Positions 2,997 to 28,432 are shown, counted from the first letter of the stretch. The stretch: DNA of 28,432 nt from a virus (IMGVR_UViG_3300032190_000018:1-28432); one strand, 5' to 3'. Translations and numbers: made by a program. Notes: a model not told the origin generated them from the sequence alone.

Positions 2997-3485
2997 ATAG
3001 GTAAACGCGGACCCGCACCGAAACCGACCAACTTAAAACTGCTCCAGGGCAATCCGGGGAAACGGCCAATCAACCAGGACGAGCCCAAGCCGAAACCCAT
3101 TGCGCCGAAGCCTCCGGCCTGGTTACCGAAGGAAGCGAAGAAGATCTGGAAGCAGTTGGCTCCTAAGTTAGAACCACTTGCACTGTTGACCGAAATTGAT
3201 TTTCTTAATTTCCAAAATCTTTGTCTTGCAGCCGCTAGAGTAAAAGAGATGCAGCAGGTCCTTGAAGAGAAGGGCTTGGTCATGGAGATTGAAACAAACG
3301 CTGGCGCCATCTACTACCAGCAGCGCCCGGAGGTAGCCATCCTTCATAAGAACATGGAATTGGTCAACAAGCTCGGTGCCAAGTTCGGCCTCTCCCCGGC
3401 GGATCGGGTTGGCCTCGGCGTAAAGCCGAAACAGGAAAACAAGGACCCCTTCGAGGAGTTCTTGAGCCGTGGCAAGAAAGCCTAA
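2997..3485 (+). CDS. terS: terminase small subunit (P27 family), apparent ATA start
   Basis: Frame extends upstream of TTG 3156 through the canonical N-terminus GKRGPAPKPTNLKLLQGNPGKRPIN; C-terminus has KFGLSPADR. RBS AAGGGGGTG lies 6 nt before ATA 2997. Confidence 0.88.
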   Translation: MGKRGPAPKPTNLKLLQGNPGKRPINQDEPKPKPIAPKPPAWLPKEAKKIWKQLAPKLEPLALLTEIDFLNFQNLCLAAARVKEMQQVLEEKGLVMEIETNAGAIYYQQRPEVAILHKNMELVNKLGAKFGLSPADRVGLGVKPKQENKDPFEEFLSRGKKA

Positions 3486-5148
3486 ACACCCGGTCACTGA
3501 GTATGCTGAGAAAGTTGTCAAGGGTAAGATACTGGCCGGGGAGTTAACAAAGCTTGCCTGTGAACGACATCTCCGGGATCTTAAGACCTGTAAAAGTCGC
3601 GGGCTGTATTTCGACGAAGAAGCGGCCGACCACGCCATTGAATTTTTCCAGTTTCTTAAGCACTCCAAGGGTGAGTGGGCTGGCTGCACATTCGAGCTTG
3701 AATTGTGGCAAAAGTTTATAGTCGGTTCCCTTTTTGGTTGGATGCGAAAAGACGGAACCAGGCGGTTTAGAACCGGTCTTATAGAAGTGCCCAGGAAAAA
3801 CGGTAAGTCCACTCTGATTGCAGGGATTGGACTTTATTTGTTTGTAGCAGATGGCGAGCCCGGAGCGGAAATATACTCAGCGGCGACTAAACGGGATCAG
3901 GCAAGAATTGTCTGGACTGAAGCAGCAAAGATGGTCAAGGCATCGCCCGACCTTGCCGCCAGAATCCGCGTGTATCCGGGCAAAGGTAATATGCACATCG
4001 AAGCGACCGGAGCCAAGTTTGAGCCCCTGGGCGCCGATGCTGATACCATGGACGGATTAAACGTTCACGGGGCCTTGATTGATGAACTGCATGCTCATAA
4101 AAACAGGGAAGTGTGGGACGTGCTGGAGACGGCCACCGGTGCCAGACGCCAGCCTTTACAGATAGCCATAACCACCGCTGGTTTTGATCAGCACGGCATT
4201 GGTTATGAGCAGCACGAATATGGCACTAAAATACTCAAGCGCACTATTAAAGACGACACATACTTTGTGTACATCGCATGCATGGATGACGACGACGATT
4301 GGACCAGCGTAACTACCTGGAAAAAGGCCAATCCGAACTTCGGTATATCTGTAAAAGAAGATGACCTCAAAAGAAAGTGTGAAAAGGCCAAAGAAATCCC
4401 TGCGGCCCAGAATAACTTCCTCTGTAAACACTTGAACAAATGGACCCAGCAAGCAACCAGGTGGATAGATCTTGGCATTTGGGATGAAAACGCAAGCATA
4501 GTAGTTGAAGAGGAATTGCGCGGCCGTACATGTTACGGCGGCCTGGACCTGTCAAGCGTAAATGATATAACTGCATGGGTCATGGTCTTCCCGGACGATG
4601 ACGACATTGAAACCGTAGATGTGCTGTGCAGGTTCTTTTGCCCGGAGGCGCGGCTTTATGATCCGCGGAACAAATACAAAGACCAGTACCAGGCCTGGGC
4701 AAAGCAAGGGTTTTTAACGCCAACGCCGGGCGAAGTTGTAGATTACGCTTTTGTCAGAGAGCAAATTATCAGAGATGCGGAAACTTTTGACCTTGTTGAC
4801 ATGAACATTGACCGCTTATTTAACTCACACCAAATTGCCGGCGAACTGATGGACGCCGGCATTAAAGTTATCGGAATGGTGCAGGGTCACCTCAGCTACG
4901 CTGTACCGATGAAAGAGTTTGAGCGGCGTTTGCTGTCTCGCAAGATCAGGCACGGGGGCAATCCCGTTCTGCGTTGGATGGCCGATAACGTAGCCGTCAG
5001 GGAAGACCCTGCAGGCAACCTGAAGCCGGATAAGGCGAATAGCCAGGGTAAAATTGACGGCATTGTAGCCCTTGTTATGGCTCTGGATAGAGCGATTAGA
5101 CACCAAGATGTTTCTATCTATGAAACCCAAGGGATTTTTGTGGTATAA
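3469..5148 (+). CDS. terL: terminase large subunit
   Basis: Walker A VPRKNGKS, Walker B ALIDELH, ITTAG coupling motif, GGLDLS nuclease motif, KIDGIVA. Confidence 0.97.
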   Translation: MARKPKHPVTEYAEKVVKGKILAGELTKLACERHLRDLKTCKSRGLYFDEEAADHAIEFFQFLKHSKGEWAGCTFELELWQKFIVGSLFGWMRKDGTRRFRTGLIEVPRKNGKSTLIAGIGLYLFVADGEPGAEIYSAATKRDQARIVWTEAAKMVKASPDLAARIRVYPGKGNMHIEATGAKFEPLGADADTMDGLNVHGALIDELHAHKNREVWDVLETATGARRQPLQIAITTAGFDQHGIGYEQHEYGTKILKRTIKDDTYFVYIACMDDDDDWTSVTTWKKANPNFGISVKEDDLKRKCEKAKEIPAAQNNFLCKHLNKWTQQATRWIDLGIWDENASIVVEEELRGRTCYGGLDLSSVNDITAWVMVFPDDDDIETVDVLCRFFCPEARLYDPRNKYKDQYQAWAKQGFLTPTPGEVVDYAFVREQIIRDAETFDLVDMNIDRLFNSHQIAGELMDAGIKVIGMVQGHLSYAVPMKEFERRLLSRKIRHGGNPVLRWMADNVAVREDPAGNLKPDKANSQGKIDGIVALVMALDRAIRHQDVSIYETQGIFVV

Positions 5149-5162
5149 AGGGGGTTTGGTAA

Positions 5163-7148
5163 TTGAGGATACCGTTTATATCAGATTGGTTGGAGAAAAG
5201 ATCAACGTTAGCCAACCCCGCCCAGTGGCTTGTTGATGCCCTGACAGGAGGCAGTAAATCCGCCGCCGGGGTAAGTGTAACCGAATCCAAAGCTCTTACG
5301 GCCAGCGGAGTTTATGCCTGTGTCAAAATACTGGCTGAAACAGTTGCTAGCCTGCCGCTTCCAGTTTACCGTCGGCTAAGTCCACGGGGGAAAGAACGGG
5401 CGCCCGATCACCCGTTATACTATATTCTGCATGATGAACCGAACCCCGAAATGACTGCCTTTACTTTTAAAGAAGCCCTTATGGGGCATTTGACATTATG
5501 GGGCAACGCCTATGCGGAAATAGAATGGGGTGCTAATGGCAGGCCGCGTGCACTTTGGCCTTTGCGGCCAGACAATACATGGCCTGAGCGGGACAGCGCA
5601 ACCAAAAAAATAATTTATAAAACAATTATCGACGGTACCACCTATGTTTTGCCGGCCCAAAACGTGCTTCACATTTTGGGATTGAGTGCTGAAGGACTGG
5701 TCGGCTACAGCCCGATCCGCATGGCCCGGGAGGCCATAGGGTTATCACTAGCCGCCGAGGAATTCGGTTCAAGGTTGTTTTCCAACGGCGCTCATCCCGG
5801 TGGCATAATTGAATACCCGAACAAGCTCAGAAAAGAAGCGAGGGAGCAATTTGAAAAGTCAATTAAGGAAGCATACAGTGGGCTAAGCAAAAGCCATCGT
5901 TTAATGGTCCTTGAAGAGGGACTAAAGTATCACCAGGTTGCCATACCCCCAGATGACGCCCAATTCCTTGAAACACGAAAATTTCAGCTAAATGAAATAT
6001 GCAGGATATTTAGGGTGCCGCCTCATATGGTGGGCGATCTGGAAAGAGCGACTTTCTCCAATATCGAGCATCAGAGCCTTGAATTTGTGATGTACACCAT
6101 AAGGCCCTGGCTGGTACGGTGGGAGCAGGCAATTCATTCTAAGCTATTTAGCCGGCAGGAAAGACAAACTTACTTTGCCGAGTTTTTAATAGAAGGACTG
6201 CTCCGGGGTGACGTGCAGGCCAGGTCGCAGTTCTACCGGGAAATGTTCATGATCGGGGCCATGTCACAAAACGACATCCGTGAAAAAGAAAATATGAACC
6301 CCATAGAAGGCGGCGATACTTATTATGTACCACTAAACATGGTACCGGCCGACATGGCCAGGAAGGTCCAGGAACCTACGGAACAAAATAGTAGGCAGGT
6401 GTTTTGGGAACAGCGCAGCATCAAGGTTGCCGACAACCGGCGCCTGCTGGCAAAAAGGTACGAGAAGGTTTTTGAAGATGCAGCCCAGCGCATAGTAAAC
6501 CGGGAGGTTGCTGACATTAAACGGGCGCTGGACAAGCACTTTGCCAGGCGCGACGCCACAAGCTTTAATCAGTGGCTTGAACAGTTCTACCGGGAAGCGC
6601 CGGAATGGATACAACGGGTAATGACGCCCGTTGTTTTTAGTTACGCGGGCATCATCCAGGCCAATATCGCTGACGAATTGGACATAAAGCCGGGCATGAC
6701 CCCAGAGTTAGAAGAGTTTGTACAGACTTACGTGAACACTTTCGCCACCCGGTATGTTGCATCATCTCAGGGTCAAATTAATGCATTGCTGGTCGAGGCC
6801 CTGGATAACAATATAGACCCGGTAGAGAAAGTCGTAAAACGTCTTAAAGAGTGGGAAGAGAAGCGCCCGCGAAAAGTGGCCATGCGGGAAACCATCCAGG
6901 TAGCCGGAGCTGTTGCTCTAAAGGTTTATAAAACCAACGGGGTTACGCGGTTAAAGTGGCGTGCCCGGGGCGACAGCTGCAAGTTCTGTCAAAAGCTTGA
7001 CGGGACGGTTGTCGGCATAGAACAGACCTTTGCGCATGAAGGAAGCGGGGTGGAGGCCGATGGCGAGACTTTAACGCCGCGCGGGAAAGTGATGCACCCA
7101 CCTTTACATGCCGGGTGCGACTGCGTAGTCGTAGCTGTGCAAGATTAG
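5163..7148 (+). CDS. HK97-family portal protein with C-terminal MuF/minor-head-protein-like extension
   Basis: Portal motifs VYACVKILAETVASLP, GNAYA, QFLETRKFQLNEICRIFRVPPHMVG, TFSNIEHQ. About 260 extra residues end in CKFCQKLDG...HPPLHAGCDC. Confidence 0.92.
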   Translation: MRIPFISDWLEKRSTLANPAQWLVDALTGGSKSAAGVSVTESKALTASGVYACVKILAETVASLPLPVYRRLSPRGKERAPDHPLYYILHDEPNPEMTAFTFKEALMGHLTLWGNAYAEIEWGANGRPRALWPLRPDNTWPERDSATKKIIYKTIIDGTTYVLPAQNVLHILGLSAEGLVGYSPIRMAREAIGLSLAAEEFGSRLFSNGAHPGGIIEYPNKLRKEAREQFEKSIKEAYSGLSKSHRLMVLEEGLKYHQVAIPPDDAQFLETRKFQLNEICRIFRVPPHMVGDLERATFSNIEHQSLEFVMYTIRPWLVRWEQAIHSKLFSRQERQTYFAEFLIEGLLRGDVQARSQFYREMFMIGAMSQNDIREKENMNPIEGGDTYYVPLNMVPADMARKVQEPTEQNSRQVFWEQRSIKVADNRRLLAKRYEKVFEDAAQRIVNREVADIKRALDKHFARRDATSFNQWLEQFYREAPEWIQRVMTPVVFSYAGIIQANIADELDIKPGMTPELEEFVQTYVNTFATRYVASSQGQINALLVEALDNNIDPVEKVVKRLKEWEEKRPRKVAMRETIQVAGAVALKVYKTNGVTRLKWRARGDSCKFCQKLDGTVVGIEQTFAHEGSGVEADGETLTPRGKVMHPPLHAGCDCVVVAVQD

Positions 7149-20273: not shown

Positions 20274-20897
20274 TTGACTCAGTACAATGCTTATTTGAAT
20301 AAGGACAAGGCCGGCAAGCTGACTTCCGCGATTTATGTTGACGGGGTTGGCTGGGTTAATTTGGTGCAGAATTACGCTGTAACAGCTGGCGGGCTGCTGG
20401 TCCCGCTAAAAAGCGCTGGCGATGGGCGGCTCCTGGGGGACGCAAATTTGCAGATAGGGGATGCGGATGTTGGAAACACCAACCCCGTGCCGGCTAAAAT
20501 CGTGGACGCGAACGGGAACCCGGTGCAGTTGGTTGATAACGGGGATGGGACATATAGTATTCCTGCACGTATATTAAACGCGGTAGATACTAAGCCGTCG
20601 GATAGAGGGGCGCAAAACGTAGATATCTGCAGTGCCGCGGACACGTCTGGCGGAGTGACTGCAGCGCTCGGTAACTATAATCAGGCTACACTATATCTCG
20701 AATCTGCTGGGAGTATAAAGCTCACTGTGGAAGTATCACCTAACGGGGGAACGGACATATACGAAATACTTGAAAGTCCAATCATTTTAGATGCAGGAGA
20801 AAAGGTTGCGTATCCTTTTACCTATAAGGCGAACTGGATAAAAATAACTGGTTCGAATACATCGGCTGTTACAGCTAAAATACGGGGTATTTATTAA
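20274..20897 (+). CDS. putative tail/baseplate appendage protein with AT-richer C-terminal beta domain
   Basis: AAAGGAGG RBS with TTG start; Gly/Ala/Thr/Val-rich; NTNPVP and DNGDGTY motifs. Confidence 0.65.
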   Translation: MTQYNAYLNKDKAGKLTSAIYVDGVGWVNLVQNYAVTAGGLLVPLKSAGDGRLLGDANLQIGDADVGNTNPVPAKIVDANGNPVQLVDNGDGTYSIPARILNAVDTKPSDRGAQNVDICSAADTSGGVTAALGNYNQATLYLESAGSIKLTVEVSPNGGTDIYEILESPIILDAGEKVAYPFTYKANWIKITGSNTSAVTAKIRGIY

Positions 20898-20922
20898 CGC
20901 TAATATTTAGCGTTATTTATTT
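20895..20922 (+). terminator. hairpin plus U-tract
   Basis: TAACGCTAA-tat-TTAGCGTTA followed by TTTATTT. Confidence 0.6.
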
Positions 20923-20939
20923 TTACGGAGGTGTGTAAA

Positions 20940-21791
20940 ATGCCCGGAAGAAAATATAGTGTTCATTTCAATCAGAGCAAGTTAGGAGCTGGAGGCACGG
21001 CTGAATTCTTCCCTAATGCAGATACTTGGGTTAGCCCGTCAGCTAATTTGGGTGATGCAGGAGTTATTTTAACAACCACACCGCTGGGAGCAGATGCAAG
21101 TTACACCCAGGATTCACAGGATAGACTTGCACCGACTATGGAAGGGGATGTTTTCGCGTTCCCTGTGGGCAGTGTCCGTGGCCTGGTATGGGCCGACCAG
21201 GCCGGGACTTTGTACCTGGAGCAAAGTGACGATGATGCGGTATGGGAAACTGTTGCCAGTGTAGCCGTGAGCGCAAATACTACGACAGAACTTGACTGGT
21301 CTTCACTTTCTAAACGCTGGTATCGCTTTAGGTATGTTAACGGAGGGGTTGCTCAGGGTAGTTTTGTTTTAATTCAACAGGTTTCCGGGTTGGCGGTAAT
21401 TAAAACCAATACTAAGCTAACGGGCAGTTCACTTCAAGATTCACAAGCTATTCCTACAAGCAAAAAGCAAGCCGATGTATTAGCAAATGATGAAACCGGC
21501 ACAGTTACAGTTTTAGCTGGTGCGGTAAAAGGTTTAAATGATTATGTTGATTCTAGAAAATATTCAAAAATAACAGCACAAATACAATGGGATGCGGCAA
21601 TATCTCATAAGTTATATATAACTAGGCGCTCTAGTGGACAAACCATGACTTATGATGATGATACGGTTGATGTGACGCAACAAAAGACAATGAAAGAGTT
21701 TATAATAAAAAATGCAGAGTCAAGGATATTTGTTAAAAATAACGATGCTTCAGACCACACAATTAAATACGATGTATTGGGGTGGTACTAA
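20940..21791 (+). CDS. putative tail appendage protein; C-terminal ~120 aa encoded by a repeat-bounded cassette
   Basis: GGAGGTG RBS, ATG 20940; beta-sandwich-like N-half (ADQAGTLYLEQS, RWYRFRYVNG); composition shifts after NTKLTGS. Confidence 0.7.
   Translation: MPGRKYSVHFNQSKLGAGGTAEFFPNADTWVSPSANLGDAGVILTTTPLGADASYTQDSQDRLAPTMEGDVFAFPVGSVRGLVWADQAGTLYLEQSDDDAVWETVASVAVSANTTTELDWSSLSKRWYRFRYVNGGVAQGSFVLIQQVSGLAVIKTNTKLTGSSLQDSQAIPTSKKQADVLANDETGTVTVLAGAVKGLNDYVDSRKYSKITAQIQWDAAISHKLYITRRSSGQTMTYDDDTVDVTQQKTMKEFIIKNAESRIFVKNNDASDHTIKYDVLGWY
21409..21423 (+). repeat. candidate recombination site, left copy
   Basis: ATACTAAGCTAACGG, 13/15 identical to 22006-22020 in direct orientation. Confidence 0.6.
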
Positions 21792-22006
21792 TGACATTAG
21801 ATGAAATAAAAAATACCTTGCCAATAAATGAGTATGGCAATGTTTATATGGAACTTTTTGATTGTGAAATCCCACCAGAAGATTTTTTGGCGCGCTTTAA
21901 AGGTGCTGAATTAGCCTGTGCCTCGTTATCTGCTCATGTAAATGCTACACCTGGCTGGATACAGCAATTTGAAAAGTGGAGAGATGATGGGATTATCCCT
22001 GCTTGA
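21791..22006 (+). CDS. 71-aa acidic hypothetical protein (possible fibre chaperone/partner)
   Basis: TAATG overlap with the upstream gene, GGGGTGG RBS; stop overlaps the right repeat by 1 nt. Confidence 0.65.
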   Translation: MTLDEIKNTLPINEYGNVYMELFDCEIPPEDFLARFKGAELACASLSAHVNATPGWIQQFEKWRDDGIIPA

Positions 22007-22020
22007 TATTAAACTAACGG
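22006..22020 (+). repeat. candidate recombination site, right copy
   Basis: ATATTAAACTAACGG at the cassette stop codon, about 220 nt before the recombinase. Confidence 0.6.
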
Positions 22021-22075
22021 TGCCGCGCTAGCACAGGAAGAAAATTTAAAAATTTTCACTGGACACCTGCCCAGC

Positions 22076-22126
22076 AGAACAAATGTTTTAATTTGACGGC
22101 GCAAATGACGCATGGTATGGTATAAT
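22076..22126 (+). promoter_or_regulatory. LexA(SOS)-like box plus sigmaA promoter of the recombinase
   Basis: AGAAC-AAAT-GTTTT (22076-22089) resembles Firmicute CGAAC-RNRY-GTTCG. TTGACG (22093-22098) is 17 nt before TATGGT, and TG-n-TATAAT occupies 22118-22126. Confidence 0.55.
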
Positions 22127-22128
22127 GT

Positions 22129-22232
22129 AAGCAGGCTAGGCCGGCGTCGCGAACCGGCCGAAAGGCGCACCTGGAGGCGCTGCCTGCTTCTATCATCTCC
22201 AGGACCAAAAATACCTTGCTCCAGGGAGGTAT
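22129..22232 (+). ncRNA. structured 5' leader (three-way junction plus SD-sequestering hairpin)
   Basis: Stems AAGCAGGC/GCCTGCTT, GGCCGG/CCGGCC and GCGC/GCGC with loop ACCTGGAG. Two CTCCAGG complements lie at 22197-22203 and 22219-22225; ATACCT/AGGTAT stem covers the SD. Confidence 0.6.
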
Positions 22233-22238
22233 CATATC

Positions 22239-23078
22239 ATGCGTCTCTCCGAAGCATGGGAGGCCTATGCCGCGGACAAGCGGTTACTTGGCTATTCCCC
22301 TCACACTTTACGCGCCTATCGTTTACAATCTACCCTTTTAATTCGGCACCTCGGAGACATTGACATCCAAGAAGTCACGTTTGAACAGCTAAAAAAGTAT
22401 CTTGCAAGTCAGGAGCACCTTAAGCCTGCGTCAATCGGTCATCGAGTTCGCTTTCTTAAGTCACTTTTTAAGTGGGCTCACGATGAAGGCTTCATAACTG
22501 CAAACCCGGCATCAAAACTCAGGGAACCTAAAATGGGTACCAGGCTTCCGAAAGCACTTTCAGAAGAGGATGTTGAATTGCTTCGGGAGGCCTGTGAAAC
22601 ACCACTGGAACATGCCCTTATTGAATTCCTTTATACTACCGGCTGCCGGATTGGTGAGGTGGCCAGACTAAACCGGAATGCCATAGACTGGGAAACCAGG
22701 TCTGTGGTGGTTCGGGGGAAAGGCGATAAGGAGCGGGAGGTTTATTTCACTATCAAATGCGGCATATGGCTAAAGAGATATCTAAAACAGCGTAAAGACA
22801 ATGATGTGGCCCTATTTGTTACGGAACGAAAACCTCACCGTATGAGCATTGCCCAGATCCGATATATAATAAAGCGGGTGGCAAGGCGGGCGGGGATACA
22901 AACCAGCGTTTACCCGCATAAACTCCGCCACAGTTACGCCACACACCTGCTTAACAACGGGGCGCCGCTGGAAGGAATTCAAACCTTGCTTGGGCACTCG
23001 AAGCTGGAGACAACACGTCTATACGCCCAGTTGTCCGGCCCCCGGCGCAGAGAATTTTATCAAAGATACTTTAGATAA
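22239..23078 (+). CDS. XerC/D-like tyrosine recombinase
   Basis: N-terminal SAM-like domain (YSPHTLRAY, NPASKL); complete catalytic set TGCRIGE (R), GKGDK (K), HKLRH (HxxR), LGH, TRLY (Y); GGAGGT RBS. Confidence 0.95.
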   Translation: MRLSEAWEAYAADKRLLGYSPHTLRAYRLQSTLLIRHLGDIDIQEVTFEQLKKYLASQEHLKPASIGHRVRFLKSLFKWAHDEGFITANPASKLREPKMGTRLPKALSEEDVELLREACETPLEHALIEFLYTTGCRIGEVARLNRNAIDWETRSVVVRGKGDKEREVYFTIKCGIWLKRYLKQRKDNDVALFVTERKPHRMSIAQIRYIIKRVARRAGIQTSVYPHKLRHSYATHLLNNGAPLEGIQTLLGHSKLETTRLYAQLSGPRRREFYQRYFR

Positions 23079-24085: not shown

Positions 24086-24654
24086 GTTATACAAAAACCA
24101 ACTGGAAAGACAGGGTAGTGGAGCACCCGCAGCGCTACACGCTGGTTGATAACGGTGACGGCACGTACACTATCACCCCGGCGCCGGGTACGGTGATCGA
24201 GGAAGGTACCCCAGTAAATGCCAGCAGAATGAATAAAATTGAAGATCAGATTGAATTGCTCAGCGTGCAGCCATTGTACCTGAAATCAGCAACATATGAT
24301 TCTGCAAATGATCAGATTGACTGCGTGTTTGCTGCCGGCCAGATAGAGCTTTTTAACGGCGACTCCCGAGTGCTGGTGCAGGTAAACGACGATGCAACAT
24401 ACAGTATAAACGCGCCGGCCATAAACACCACATACTATATCTTTTTACAACCTGACGGCACATTTACCCACAACACCACAGGCAACGTCCCGGCAGGGAG
24501 TGTGTTTGTTTGGGAAGTGGCCACCGGGGCCGCGGTGGACGAGATAACCAAAACCGACAGGCGGTATCAAATAAGCGGCGTGGGGGCCAAGCTTGCTGCA
24601 CATTTGGCCGATTATGCGAACTACCAGCGGAAGGTTAGGATGGGGGCGATGTAA
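24082..24654 (+). CDS. short tail-fibre base protein
   Basis: YTKTNWKDRVVE...GTVIEEGTPVNASRMNKIED N-terminus typical of Firmicute fibre proteins; ends AHLADYA plus a short tail. Confidence 0.75.
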   Translation: MSYTKTNWKDRVVEHPQRYTLVDNGDGTYTITPAPGTVIEEGTPVNASRMNKIEDQIELLSVQPLYLKSATYDSANDQIDCVFAAGQIELFNGDSRVLVQVNDDATYSINAPAINTTYYIFLQPDGTFTHNTTGNVPAGSVFVWEVATGAAVDEITKTDRRYQISGVGAKLAAHLADYANYQRKVRMGAM

Positions 24655-24983
24655 TGGGAGTTACGGTTAAAAAACTTGGTCAGACGGCACTTGATACCAC
24701 ACCAGTAACAATATGTACTGGTGTAGCAGGGGGGCATACTGAAGTAAAAAACTTGTTCATTACTAATACCAATCCTACTACGGAAAGAAAAGTGAAATTA
24801 TTTGCTCATGGAACAGCTACAGGCAATACGCTTATTGAAGAACTAATTATCCCAGCAAAAGGCACAAAAATATTCACGAAAGAAGAAATTGCAATTGTTC
24901 TTCCAGAGGGAGAGAGTTTATCAGCGTTGCAAGATGTAGGAACAGACGTAATTGTTACAGCTTATGGGATAGAGGAGGTATAA
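24654..24983 (+). CDS. small beta-sandwich tail-tip protein
   Basis: TAATG overlap; VKNLFITNT, IVLPEGESL, VTAYGIE. Confidence 0.6.
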   Translation: MGVTVKKLGQTALDTTPVTICTGVAGGHTEVKNLFITNTNPTTERKVKLFAHGTATGNTLIEELIIPAKGTKIFTKEEIAIVLPEGESLSALQDVGTDVIVTAYGIEEV

Positions 24984-24986
24984 GGT

Positions 24987-26084
24987 ATGCCTATTAGCAT
25001 TCCTGAGTCTGAAAGAAAAGGATTGTCGTCTGACATTGTAGTGCCTCACGGAGCGAGTATCCCTACTTACGGAAGCGCTATGGCAGTTGCCGAAGTTGAT
25101 GGGATTATATATTTTATTGGAGGATATAACAGGGATGTCCAATACTCACAATTAAATGAAGCCTATGACCCGGTAACGGATACTTGGACAACTAAGGCGC
25201 CGATGCCTACGGGCAGAGAATTCTGCAAAGCTGGGGTGATAAATAGTAAGATATATGTTTATGGTGGTTATAACGGTGCTTATTTAGGTACTCTTGAAGA
25301 ATACGATCCAGCAACAAATTCTTGGACATCTAAAACAGGGGCCACCGCAAGGTATCAATTTGCGCTATGTGTGTTAAATGGCGTTCTTCACGCATTTGCA
25401 GGACATGATGGTTCGGCTGCCATCACGACACACGAAATTTACGACCCAGTTACAGATACCTGGACATCAAAAGCTCCATATCCGCAAGCATTTTATGACT
25501 TAAGTGGAGCAGCAACAGATACAAAAGTATATGGATTTGGTGGTATAGCTGCTAACGGCTATGGAAGTGCTCTTTGTTATGAGTATGACCCGTCGAGCGA
25601 TACTTGGGCTCAAAAAGCGGACATGTTAAAACAGGCTTATGGAGCAGAAGCAGTTGAATTGAATGGTTTAATATACGTTTTAGGCGGACATTATGGATCA
25701 GGTACTGCATATGATGATGTTCAAATATATGACCCGGCGACGGATACATGGGAATATGGAGTGGAAATGCCAACTGCGAAGTTCGATTTTCATGCAGTAG
25801 TTTCCGGACAGAAAATATACTGTTTACAAAAAGGTATTCCATATAGTCTAGAAATATTTGACCCTGAAAAAGTAAATACTGTTGAGCTTATAAGAAGCGA
25901 TAGTAATGTGATAGTTAGCATTACGAAAACACCTATACCGTTAGAAATATACGATATTGACGGCTTGGTGGGTACTTATGATGTAGGTACTTATGGCCCT
26001 TTCGTGGGGCCGGTTACTGTTAAAGTCCCTAAAGAGAGGGCATGGTCTAGAGCGAGTACCAAGGCCGCAGTTGTTTTATATTAA
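24987..26084 (+). CDS. Kelch-repeat beta-propeller protein, candidate receptor-binding tail protein
   Basis: About six repeats of IY(F/V)xGG...YDPxTDTW (e.g. IYFIGG/YDPVTDTW, IYVYGG/YDPATNSW, IYVLGG/YDPATDTW). Confidence 0.88.
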   Translation: MPISIPESERKGLSSDIVVPHGASIPTYGSAMAVAEVDGIIYFIGGYNRDVQYSQLNEAYDPVTDTWTTKAPMPTGREFCKAGVINSKIYVYGGYNGAYLGTLEEYDPATNSWTSKTGATARYQFALCVLNGVLHAFAGHDGSAAITTHEIYDPVTDTWTSKAPYPQAFYDLSGAATDTKVYGFGGIAANGYGSALCYEYDPSSDTWAQKADMLKQAYGAEAVELNGLIYVLGGHYGSGTAYDDVQIYDPATDTWEYGVEMPTAKFDFHAVVSGQKIYCLQKGIPYSLEIFDPEKVNTVELIRSDSNVIVSITKTPIPLEIYDIDGLVGTYDVGTYGPFVGPVTVKVPKERAWSRASTKAAVVLY

Positions 26085-26102
26085 GGTGAGGGGGATGATA
26101 AA

Positions 26103-26534
26103 ATGGCTAATGTTACTGCCGATATGATTGTTAACGCAGCGAGAGAAAAGGGAATAGCTATCTCTGAGGAAACAAAAACTAGTATTCAGCTTGAGTTGGG
26201 AAAAATAGACCAAAATATAATTCAGTTAGAGGAAGAAAATAAGTTAACTTATGAAATATGGGATAAAGTCTCACCTGTTAACGGTGTACCAGCAGAAAAG
26301 TTGCTTAGTAGAAGCGATGTTGACGTCAATAGTGAGATTTATTTAATTAAGGATGCAAATACAGGTAAAGTGCTTTATTTTCAACCGCATGCACCGGGAG
26401 AGATTGGCTTTGTAAGAATGAAGACAAAGGCAGAGGCAGAAAGCGCCGCGAAAAAGCATAGGTTTCTATTAGCGGAAGCAAGAGCAAATGCTCGGATTAT
26501 AAAAGAAGTTTTAAGTAAATTTAATATGCAGTAG
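26103..26534 (+). CDS. hypothetical tail-tip associated protein (possible fibre chaperone)
   Basis: GAGGGGG RBS; WDKVSPVNGVPAE; last gene of the AT-rich block. Confidence 0.65.
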   Translation: MANVTADMIVNAAREKGIAISEETKTSIQLELGKIDQNIIQLEEENKLTYEIWDKVSPVNGVPAEKLLSRSDVDVNSEIYLIKDANTGKVLYFQPHAPGEIGFVRMKTKAEAESAAKKHRFLLAEARANARIIKEVLSKFNMQ

Positions 26535-26555
26535 GACTTAACTGTGCAACAACGG

Positions 26556-26578
26556 CGCCCAAAGGAGGCGTTATTTTT
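26556..26578 (+). terminator. terminator-like hairpin before the lysis cassette
   Basis: CGCC-caaagga-GGCG followed by TTATTTTT. Confidence 0.5.
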
Positions 26579-26629
26579 ATGCCCGGGCTCCGGTGAGTGC
26601 CCGGGCTAATTACAGGGGGTGGCCTCATT

Positions 26630-26812
26630 TTGAATACAGATGAACGCCTGGCCATCCTGGAATCGGAGGTGGCCCATTTGAAAACGCGCGATCAGCAGCT
26701 AAACGGTAGCATCCAGAAGGTCGAAGCCATGGTGTGGAGAATGTGCCTCGGGCTTTTCGCGGTGATGGGCGGCGTAATAGCCACCTTTATTGCCGTGGTG
26801 TGGGAAAAATGA
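26630..26812 (+). CDS. XhlA-like/holin-like membrane protein
   Basis: AGGGGGTG RBS, TTG 26630; coiled coil (ERLAILESEVAHLK) followed by one C-terminal TM helix; first gene of the lysis cassette. Confidence 0.7.
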   Translation: MNTDERLAILESEVAHLKTRDQQLNGSIQKVEAMVWRMCLGLFAVMGGVIATFIAVVWEK

Positions 26813-27453
26813 CTACTATACTTGCCATCGCGCCGGTCATAGTCCTGCTGGTGTATTTCTATTGTCAAGATCGTTACGACAAAGAGCCTTTGTCCAAGCT
26901 TGCCGAGGCTTTTTTTGTTGGTATGATCGTGGTGTTACAGATTCAGTACCTACAGGACCTCTTACTCGACATCAGCACGCACATAGCATGGCAGGCTTTT
27001 ATTGTGGCGGGCCTGGTTGAAGAAGGCATTAAGCTTATGGCATTAAGATTCACCATTTACCGGGACAAACACTTTAACGAGCAGGTGGACGGCATTATCT
27101 ATGCCGTTTTTTTGGGCCTTGGTTTTGCCTTGGCCGAAACAATTGTCCTATCAGTTGACCATTCAACCAGCATTGTCCGGGCGGTTACCGCTGTCCCGGC
27201 ACATGCCATGTTCGCCTGCGTGATGGGCTATTACCTGGGTAAGTACAAATTCCACAGTAAAAGAAACCTGCTAGCTTACGCTTTATTTGTACCTGCGGTT
27301 TTACATGGGGTATATAACTATCTCTTGATGTGCGGCCATACCTGGGCGCTGATTTCGTTTGTACCGTATCTCATAGCCCTCTGGGTAATCGGTATCAGGG
27401 ATACGGATATTCACCTGAGAAACTCAAGGTTTAGGAGGAAATCCAATGTTTAA
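26809..27453 (+). CDS. prsW: PrsW-family intramembrane protease
   Basis: ATGA overlap start at 26809; DRYDKEP, AGLVEEGIK (EExxK), DGIIYAVFLGLGFALAE (FxxxE), VPAHAMF, LHGVYN (HxxxN); several TM segments. Confidence 0.9.
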   Translation: MTTILAIAPVIVLLVYFYCQDRYDKEPLSKLAEAFFVGMIVVLQIQYLQDLLLDISTHIAWQAFIVAGLVEEGIKLMALRFTIYRDKHFNEQVDGIIYAVFLGLGFALAETIVLSVDHSTSIVRAVTAVPAHAMFACVMGYYLGKYKFHSKRNLLAYALFVPAVLHGVYNYLLMCGHTWALISFVPYLIALWVIGIRDTDIHLRNSRFRRKSNV

Positions 27454-28201
27454 TTGGATTAGGGAACACAAAGTACCGGCTCTGTTTATTTCTCTACTTT
27501 TGATCGTGGCGCTGGTATATGGAGTGACCCGTGGCGTAGGGTATCTTTCTGCCCAGCGACAGGCGTTCATTGACGAAATCGCCCCGGGAGCAATAGACGG
27601 ATACAGGGAGTACGGAATACTGCCGTCCCTCACCATAGCGCAGGCTATTTTAGAAAGCAACTGGGGGAAATCACACATCGAGAATAACCTTTTCGGCATG
27701 AAGGCTGGGCAGGGCTGGAAAGGCAAGGTGGTCTATCGGAAAACAAAAGAATACACGGGAGGCAAGTGGATCACTGTTACCGCCGCGTTCCGGGCCTATG
27801 ATTCCTTTGCAGATTCAGTGAAAGACCACTCTCGCCTGCTTGCTTCGCTATCGCGGTATAGGGCAGTGCTGACCGCCGCTGATTACAAAGAAGCGGCGAT
27901 GCGGGTATGGCAGGGCGGGTATGCCACGGATCCGAACTACCCGGCCAAGCTGGTAAAAATCATAGAAGCCTACGGTCTGGATAAATACGACCAACAGGCC
28001 AAGGAAGCGCTTAAACCCAAATACAAATACTTCGCAGACGTACCTGACGGCGCTTGGTTTGCCGACGCCATTAACCGGCTGCATGAGCAGGGAATAGTGC
28101 TTGGAAGAAGCGATGGGTTATGCCATCCGCATGAGCCGATTACCCGGGCGGAGGCTATGGCGCTGATTGACAGGGTAATAAACCAAAAGGAGAGTGATTA
28201 A
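27446..28201 (+). CDS. endolysin: N-terminal TM/signal segment, GH73 glucosaminidase/muramidase, C-terminal SLH domain
   Basis: AQAILESNWG, NNLFGMKA, FRAYDS, GYATDPNY; FADVPDGAWF...GIVLG...PITRAEA (SLH); hydrophobic LFISLLLIVALVY at the N-terminus. Confidence 0.92.
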   Translation: MFNWIREHKVPALFISLLLIVALVYGVTRGVGYLSAQRQAFIDEIAPGAIDGYREYGILPSLTIAQAILESNWGKSHIENNLFGMKAGQGWKGKVVYRKTKEYTGGKWITVTAAFRAYDSFADSVKDHSRLLASLSRYRAVLTAADYKEAAMRVWQGGYATDPNYPAKLVKIIEAYGLDKYDQQAKEALKPKYKYFADVPDGAWFADAINRLHEQGIVLGRSDGLCHPHEPITRAEAMALIDRVINQKESD

Positions 28202-28204
28202 AAC

Positions 28205-28432
28205 ATGGAAAGTCAGGTTATCCAATTGGCCTACGATGCGCTGGCCATCCTTATCCCGGCACTTGTGGCTCTGGGTATAGAGTATCTGCGGAGGAAGTTG
28301 GGTACCGAGAAAATGAGGAAAATCCAGGAAGAATTGGCCGCCAAACAGGAGCTTGCCACCATGGCGGTGCGTTTTGTTGAACAGGTATACAAATATGTAC
28401 ATGGGCCAGATAAGTATGAGAAAGCGGCGGAA
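28205..28432 (+). CDS. holin, LL-H-like family (3' end outside window)
   Basis: AAGGAGAGTG RBS, ATG 28205; MESQVIQLAYDALAILIPALVALGIEYLRRKLG...AVRFVEQVY...GPDKYEKA; open to the window end. Confidence 0.8.
   Translation, partial: MESQVIQLAYDALAILIPALVALGIEYLRRKLGTEKMRKIQEELAAKQELATMAVRFVEQVYKYVHGPDKYEKAAE

Follow-up and report, generated by a model that had tools for sequence, protein, structure and literature searches.

A protease gene in a phage lysis cassette

We analysed a 28,432-nucleotide stretch of viral DNA (IMGVR_UViG_3300032190_000018:1-28432, hereafter the window), at the right end of which a lysis cassette joins a gene for a PrsW-family membrane protease to a gene for an endolysin with a conserved N-terminal anchor. 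The window is the whole of contig C4 of genome G000 (completeness 95%), and Pfam matches identified it as the late region of a contractile-tailed phage, with terminase, portal, capsid, baseplate J and tail genes. The cassette runs on the plus strand from a 60-residue open reading frame (ORF) through PrsW and a GH73-SLH endolysin to an LL-H holin, the order given in a preliminary description of this DNA. Its features, in window positions, are as follows.

26630-26812, plus strand: 60-residue protein, soluble in its N-terminal part, hydrophobic helix at the C-terminus; TTG start
26809-27453, plus strand: PrsW-family (M82) membrane protease, 214 residues (PF13367, E 4.7e-34)
27433-27438, plus strand: AGGAGG, ribosome-binding site of the endolysin, within the PrsW coding sequence (read from the sequence)
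27446-28201, plus strand: endolysin, 251 residues, GH73 and SLH (Pfam and endolysin PHROGs)
27446-27547, plus strand: conserved N-terminal anchor, endolysin residues 1-34, predicted PrsW recognition element (from alignments)
27584-27976, plus strand: GH73 glucosaminidase domain, endolysin residues 47-177, with E70 and a YATD motif (PF01832, E 7.2e-35)
28031-28156, plus strand: SLH cell-wall-binding domain, endolysin residues 196-237 (PF00395, E 1.6e-8)
28205-28432, plus strand: LL-H family holin, interrupted by the contig end (PF09682, E 1.8e-8; holin phrog_608, E 6.5e-6)

The preliminary description had PrsW overlapping both of its neighbours, and both overlaps are present in the sequence, as ATGA at 26809-26812 and as 8 nt at 27446-27453. 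A separately assembled contig of run X1, possibly the window's own sample, covers 24866-27664 with zero differences, indicating that the cassette junctions are not an assembly artefact. Third-position GC was 0.55 in PrsW, near the values of the lysin (0.58) and the holin (0.57), and 0.30-0.31 in the two upstream genes. Over the 76 residues present, the holin scored 35.1 bits against a cut-off of 24.9. The 60-residue ORF had been called XhlA-like, a label that holds for its shape and finds no clear family behind it: the ORF had no match in Pfam or NCBIfam and none in PHROG at E 0.01, its sole PHROG match being a weak one to a hemolysin (phrog_1193, E 0.019). Promoter and terminator counts were at chance level.

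The protease belongs to a separate PrsW clade

The protease scored 118.1 bits against PF13367 (curated cut-off 23.5). Its catalytic motifs, described before as fully kept, were found intact as E71-E72-x-x-K75, F106-x3-E110, H132 and H166-x3-N170, and these residues map onto the four motifs of Bacillus subtilis YpdC (EExxK, FxxxE, H and HxxxD/N; PMC12943098). With 173.5 bits it falls under the 225-bit cut-off of the canonical PrsW equivalog, NF033739. The predicted model (predicted local distance difference test score, pLDDT, 89.3) has seven long helices, and its best solved match was APH-1 (Z 13.1, root-mean-square deviation (rmsd) 4.2, 196 aligned), which lies near the chance range for helical bundles; it also weakly matched one chain of the SagB-SpdC entry 6u0o (Z 7.2, rmsd 4.3, 165 aligned). 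Foldseek returned no match at E 0.001. As modelled, the protein has the seven-helix membrane fold of the PrsW/CPBP/APH-1 group. By their charges, loop 5 and the C-terminus face inward and loops 2, 4 and 6 outward, a topology in which E110 would lie near the outer face of the membrane.

When a tree of 55 rows was built, 10 PrsWs including that of the window formed a single branch (support 100/99), which divides into a GH73-linked and an amidase-linked branch. The tree omits P0009-P0012, which are close to P0008, and the proteins of loci L083 and L192 form long branches. The clade is marked by E33 (10 of 10 members versus 1 of 45 others) and Q44 (9 of 10 versus 0 of 45). E71, E72, K75, E110 and H132 were kept in all 10 members and H166 in all 9 that cover it, and the five members with genomic context share only 36-53% identity with one another. 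The five nearest relatives of the window protein, at 47-64% identity, have motifs that are absent from ordinary PrsWs.

The group is rare: the searches turned up 10 PrsWs and about 20 anchor proteins in all, every one from an uncultured source. The window protein is the sole PF13367 match in G000, and no clade member was found in 40 relatives or, at E 1e-30, in 161 other genomes of the class; it is no recent capture from this host lineage. Among 400 genomes of the phylum, 70 have ordinary PrsW only, the best scoring 191.5 bits versus 311-344 for whole clade members, and in the class of genome G162 (which holds L083) none of 148 other genomes had a clade PrsW at E 1e-50. That best score belongs to one of two PrsW genes in genome G180 (locus L150), the top-scoring outsider to the lysin-linked clade; it joins the clade with weak support (28/5) and has no adjoining anchored lysin. 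The 50,697 GenBank phage records held no match to the PrsW of the window or of L114. Three PrsW scans of viral contigs also found none, although L192 is present in that collection; such scans miss members, because L192 later surfaced there through its amidase.

The endolysin carries a conserved N-terminal anchor

The GH73 domain of the endolysin scored 120.8 bits against PF01832 (cut-off 30.2), with E70 and Y159-A-T-D present, which we take to be the catalytic residues. The N-terminus follows the pattern W-I-x3-K-V-P, then an 18-residue hydrophobic helix, then G-[IV]-x2-G-x-[GST]-Y-L. The helix had been described as strongly hydrophobic, and the values bear this out, with a mean Kyte-Doolittle index of 2.62 over residues 10-27 and a Gly+Ala content of 20% over residues 10-34. 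Anchored lysins as a group ranged from 2.27 to 3.10, with a Gly+Ala fraction of 0.12-0.28 in 13 of 14 and 0.40 in that of L114. Signal-arrest-release (SAR) domains are defined as weakly hydrophobic and Gly/Ala-rich (10.1101/2025.11.12.688109). Measured against that definition alone, the anchored lysins fall outside SAR.

Five full-length relatives of the lysin have the anchor, and close GH73 relatives without it start at about residue 37. Searching 1.84 billion proteins with a 45-column anchor profile gave 10 matches, namely 2 already in the profile, 7 new ones and 1 internal to a 1533-residue protein (P0077, omitted from the anchor set). The anchor was found on both GH73 and Amidase_2 lysins, with SLH, CWB2 or Cu_amine_oxidN1 domains behind it, and it also stands alone in three proteins of 52-61 residues. 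Over 17 anchors, I5 and G26 were kept in all 17, W4, G30 and L34 in 16, and P11 and Y33 in 15. Anchors of GH73-SLH lysins (n = 7) and amidases (n = 6) were 45.7% identical, versus 14.1 +/- 1.0% (maximum 17.1%) for 1000 shuffles preserving the segment layout. Judged from the alignments, the anchor is a conserved module shared by two kinds of catalytic domain that are unrelated to each other. A quick GH73 tree set the anchored P0073 apart from the other anchored GH73 proteins, and no starred branch forces a second origin.

Signal peptidase I sites are judged by the -3/-1 rule. By this rule, a strict site was found in 2 of the 14 anchored lysins, a lenient one in 10 and none in 4, and the window lysin has a lenient site only (L-S-A36). 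At none of the five loci is the anchor followed by a second in-frame start that has a ribosome-binding site. We rejected the anchor as a holin: the mini-protein P0079 alone matched a holin PHROG (E 7e-4), and 0 of 5 lysin anchors did so.

The anchor-only proteins P0079 (L192:2461-2619), P0071 and P0074 end with an acidic tail that contains (I/V)VPC, and the gene in L192 starts 17 nt past prsW. A decoy, an inhibitor or a second substrate are possible roles for them; in the Atlas, nothing exceeded 0.77 for the mini-protein. Other searches added little. A viral scan with the window lysin alone found nothing, the 11 loci obtained by scanning viral contigs for the anchor motif contained neither anchor nor PrsW, and an anchor search of 401 genomes returned G162 and one chemoreceptor helix, the latter being rejected. 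No PrsW-lysin fusion was seen among longer proteins, which is weak evidence.

The protease gene accompanies anchored lysins

The preliminary description had proposed that lysis-cassette prsW is coupled to membrane-anchored endolysins, a proposal that could be examined across loci from both sides. Scanning metagenome contigs with a motif of the PrsW clade yielded 33 loci, of which 28 were chance matches and 5 held a true PrsW. One of the five (L115) is the window's own contig and another (L094) ends before the PrsW stop codon. In the remaining three, an anchored lysin lies directly downstream of PrsW: GH73-SLH in L102, Amidase_2-CWB2 in L105 and Amidase_2 in L114, the last two overlapping PrsW.

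From the lysin side, four scans gave 121 loci, 117 of them with a lysin (2 anchored and 115 unanchored). Two of these scans, both blind to PrsW, found the anchored lysins: a genome scan led to L083, in a Dethiobacter sp. record, where PrsW ends 5 nt before the lysin, and a viral scan with an amidase alignment led to L192, which encodes PrsW, a 52-residue anchor-only protein, a 121-residue ORF and an anchored amidase. PrsW was thus present at both anchored-lysin loci. It was found at 0 of the 115 unanchored GH73 or amidase loci, 111 of which have at least 1 kb of upstream sequence. The contrast is descriptive and carries no statistical test, because these controls include near-copies and repeats and are not independent.

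When L102 and L083 are counted once, because they are the same cassette, every distinct locus with flanking DNA (5 of 5) has the pair, with PrsW no more than 0.6 kb upstream of the endolysin. These counts support the proposed coupling. Since the PrsW tree splits into GH73-linked and amidase-linked branches, the loci point to one ancestral pair kept through long divergence and not to five recruitments. Ordinary chromosomal PrsW loci had the anchor within about 1.5 kb in 0 of 29 cases. At three of these 29 (L153, L157 and L158) the next gene encodes a secreted, SleB-like cell-wall hydrolase with PG_binding_1 and Hydrolase_2 domains and without the anchor, which again places PrsW beside an enzyme that acts on the wall.

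Gene order differs among the loci, and PrsW stays near the lysin. L192 lies in G699, a 41-kb record of a large myovirus, about 32% complete by estimate, where neck and tail-tube genes follow the locus downstream. There the PrsW-lysin pair occupies 3458-5706, and the only LL-H-like gene, a holin-like gene scoring 19.7 bits and under the cut-off, lies at 36673, about 31 kb away. No holin or XhlA-like gene was recognised near the pair in L083; one gene first taken as a holin had no holin match. Because the G699 holin-like gene is distant and L083 has none that was recognised, the constant partner of PrsW is the anchored lysin and not a holin or XhlA-like gene; the XhlA/hemolysin-like 60-residue gene, too, is not constantly linked to the module.

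In L083 the intact pair (L083:3222-4675, or G162:C47:14574-16027) stands amid bacterial genes, several of them broken, and no phage genes were recognised by eye over 14.5 kb upstream and 4 kb downstream, as for a stranded or domesticated two-gene module. Locus L105 has a second, weak Amidase_2-like ORF (2152-2652), flanked by the anchored amidase and the holin; it ends in an acidic tail and lacks the anchor.

A model for protease-mediated release, and its alternatives

On balance we favour, with modest confidence, a reading in which the lysin sits in the membrane as a type II protein and is cut free outside the membrane by the phage PrsW. Host Sec or YidC would insert the lysin N-in, C-out, and signal peptidase would leave the anchor in place. 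PrsW would then recognise the anchor within the membrane, probably through W4/K9/P11 and G26-x3-G30-x2-Y33-L34, the latter being exposed at the outer face in this orientation. A cut near residues 30-40 would give a product resembling the unanchored relatives that start at about residue 37, and the freed lysin would reach and digest the wall. As for timing, PrsW would probably respond to holin depolarisation or to envelope stress, and the cut may be delayed by the anchor-only mini-proteins serving as decoys. In B. subtilis, PrsW is the protease behind the site-1 cut in RsiW, a single-pass membrane protein (PMC5358783, PMC10202637), and this cut is classed as extracellular-side (PMC9263693).

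We also predicted a complex of PrsW with lysin residues 1-60. It scored 0.41 versus 0.00 for the best of three controls, with runs that disagreed (0.00, 0.41 and 0.44), a contact agreement of at least 6% and a partner pLDDT of at least 49. Of 157 solved complexes, 116 reached the mark used for this score, as did 2 of 215 mismatches; at scores of 0.60 or less, only 18 of the 157 solved complexes and both mismatches did so. The predicted complex gives weak support and shifts the odds little.

Several observations weigh against release by PrsW. All seven GH73-SLH lysins, that of the window included, have a lenient signal peptidase site at residue 36 (L-x-A/S), and the window cassette still encodes an LL-H holin. 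The five loci share a single origin, and tight linkage alone could carry two neighbours along; in L192, moreover, two ORFs separate PrsW from the lysin. The 115 control loci probably come mostly from other hosts, and anchored lysins without PrsW may exist, since the contexts of 10 of 17 anchor proteins and 4 of 10 clade PrsWs were unseen. The host genome, G000, has extracytoplasmic function (ECF) sigma factors paired with zinc-finger anti-sigma factors, which are possible PrsW targets. SpdC, too, has this fold, and it is described as a protein that binds a hydrolase and presents it.

An unlikely yet serious alternative, which the preliminary description did not raise, is that PrsW binds the anchor without cutting it, as a membrane scaffold, activator or restraint of the SpdC-SagB type. 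It is a real alternative because Staphylococcus aureus SagB contacts SpdC through its membrane helix and requires SpdC in cells (PMC9245657; 10.1101/2021.03.06.434200). Such binding would explain the pairing and the conserved anchor equally well, and the model matches to APH-1 and, weakly, to the SagB-SpdC chain agree with it. However, the retention of every catalytic residue among PrsWs so far diverged fits an active enzyme, and the wall-binding domains behind the anchor (SLH, CWB2 or Cu_amine_oxidN1) suggest that the lysins act away from the membrane.

We consider it comparably improbable that the anchor is a signal peptide cut by host signal peptidase I, as in fOg44 Lys44, with the holin as trigger and PrsW as a linked accessory acting on a host ECF anti-sigma factor or the like. 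The N-terminus is laid out like a signal peptide, the residue-36 site is common to the GH73-SLH lysins, and signal-peptide endolysins alongside holins are known (PMC6116005). In G000 the ECF sigma and zf-HC2 anti-sigma genes adjoin and the only PrsW is the one described here, and the shared origin could account for the linkage. Against this, the anchor keeps 46% identity between lysins with different catalytic domains, with W4, I5, G26, G30, Y33 and L34 near-invariant; signal peptides are usually less conserved than this. Moreover, 4 of 14 lysins have not even a lenient site, the anchor occurs alone in the three small proteins, and PrsW adjoins the lysin across very different gene orders.

We regard as very improbable a role in which the PrsW cut inactivates the lysin and guards the cell or lysogen against early lysis. 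The pairing and the conserved active site would fit it too, as would the presence of the pair in the bacterial contig of L083. A cut past the anchor, however, would yield a product like the unanchored relatives, and the gene overlaps within a late cassette point to co-expression at lysis. Least probable is that PrsW processes the XhlA-like protein or the holin, as the preliminary description had offered alongside release of the endolysin: in the window and L114, PrsW does share an ATGA overlap with a small membrane gene upstream, and small membrane genes lie nearby in L094 and L105, but these neighbours have no common family match and no such gene was recognised beside the pair in L192 or L083, so this role is disfavoured.

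Relation to known systems

Canonical and phage PrsW are alike in Pfam family, in seven predicted helices, in the four motifs and in a single-pass substrate, which for the phage protein is proposed here. The phage protein differs in forming a separate clade, in scoring under the equivalog cut-off, in having E33 and Q44, and in being linked to an endolysin instead of a sigma factor. The specificity of PrsW is poorly known, and B. subtilis YpdC has been called the sole functionally characterised PrsW domain (PMC12943098).

With fOg44 Lys44, P1 Lyz and phage 21 R21 the window lysin has in common an N-terminal hydrophobic export signal, a presumed holin-independent export and the presence of a holin (PMC6116005). 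Unlike the Lys44 and SAR types, its anchor is strongly hydrophobic and conserved in sequence, mostly comes without a strict signal peptidase site, and has a protease gene of its own. The S. aureus pairs SagB-SpdC and LytH-ActH likewise combine an anchored glucosaminidase or amidase with a partner from an intramembrane-protease family (PMC9245657; 10.1101/2021.03.06.434200); these, in contrast, are chromosomal wall-building complexes with CAAX-like or rhomboid partners in place of PrsW, and what is described for them is binding and activation, not release.

For PrsW-fused polymorphic toxins, comparative genomics has led to the proposal that PrsW processes C-terminal cargo and releases it across the membrane (PMC3482391). 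The toxins are single polypeptides, whereas here PrsW is encoded apart from its cargo, an endolysin. The Mtz-Tim pair of a Listeria prophage also involves a phage-linked protease that frees a membrane-tethered partner and enhances lysis (PMC8235301), but Mtz is a secreted metzincin, its partner is a TIMP-like lipoprotein encoded downstream of holin and lysin, and the endolysin is not the substrate (PMC8235301). PrsW figures in that paper as a chromosomal gene in the neighbourhood (PMC8235301).

Reviewed routes by which endolysins get to the wall comprise holin holes, cleaved signal peptides, SAR domains, chaperones and teichoic-acid co-transport, all of which await holin depolarisation, and the section on exported endolysins names no phage-encoded releasing protease (PMC6116005). 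A literature search confined to main texts found no earlier description of a PrsW-endolysin pairing, on which supplementary lists of PrsW neighbourhoods (for example of PMC3482391) could bear. The system would be an exported-endolysin lysis built from known families, in a coupling that is apparently undescribed. More tentatively, it may represent a third class of exported endolysin, with a permanent anchor freed by a phage site-1 protease and not by signal peptidase or by slipping out of the membrane, in which the anchor would be a portable cut tag and the mini-proteins timing decoys.

If a phage membrane protease does release the lysin, regulated proteolysis is added to the lysin-export routes, and PrsW gains its first small, defined substrate beyond anti-sigma factors. 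A 214-residue protease and a 34-residue partner with lysis as read-out make substrate recognition directly testable, and the anchor could serve as an inducible release tag. If instead PrsW is a scaffold, the pair would be the phage counterpart of SagB-SpdC.

Other features of the window

Three further regions of the window were recorded. Between the baseplate J gene and a DUF2612 gene lies a 2.8-kb block (20274-23078) in which a tyrosine recombinase (PF00589) accompanies ORFs of 207, 286 and 74 residues; the block may be an inserted element or may serve as a tail-module switch. A 31-nt stretch is common to 20530-20560 and 24143-24173 (81%). The portal protein (5163-7148, 661 residues) has a weak C-terminal MuF-like match under the cut-off (PF04233, E 6.5e-4). 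At the end of the tail region, a Kelch-repeat protein (365 residues) and a 143-residue ORF (24987-26534) have a third-position GC of 0.30-0.31 versus 0.44-0.67 in the other genes measured, and this pair reads as a module swapped in recently, with a role perhaps in receptor binding.

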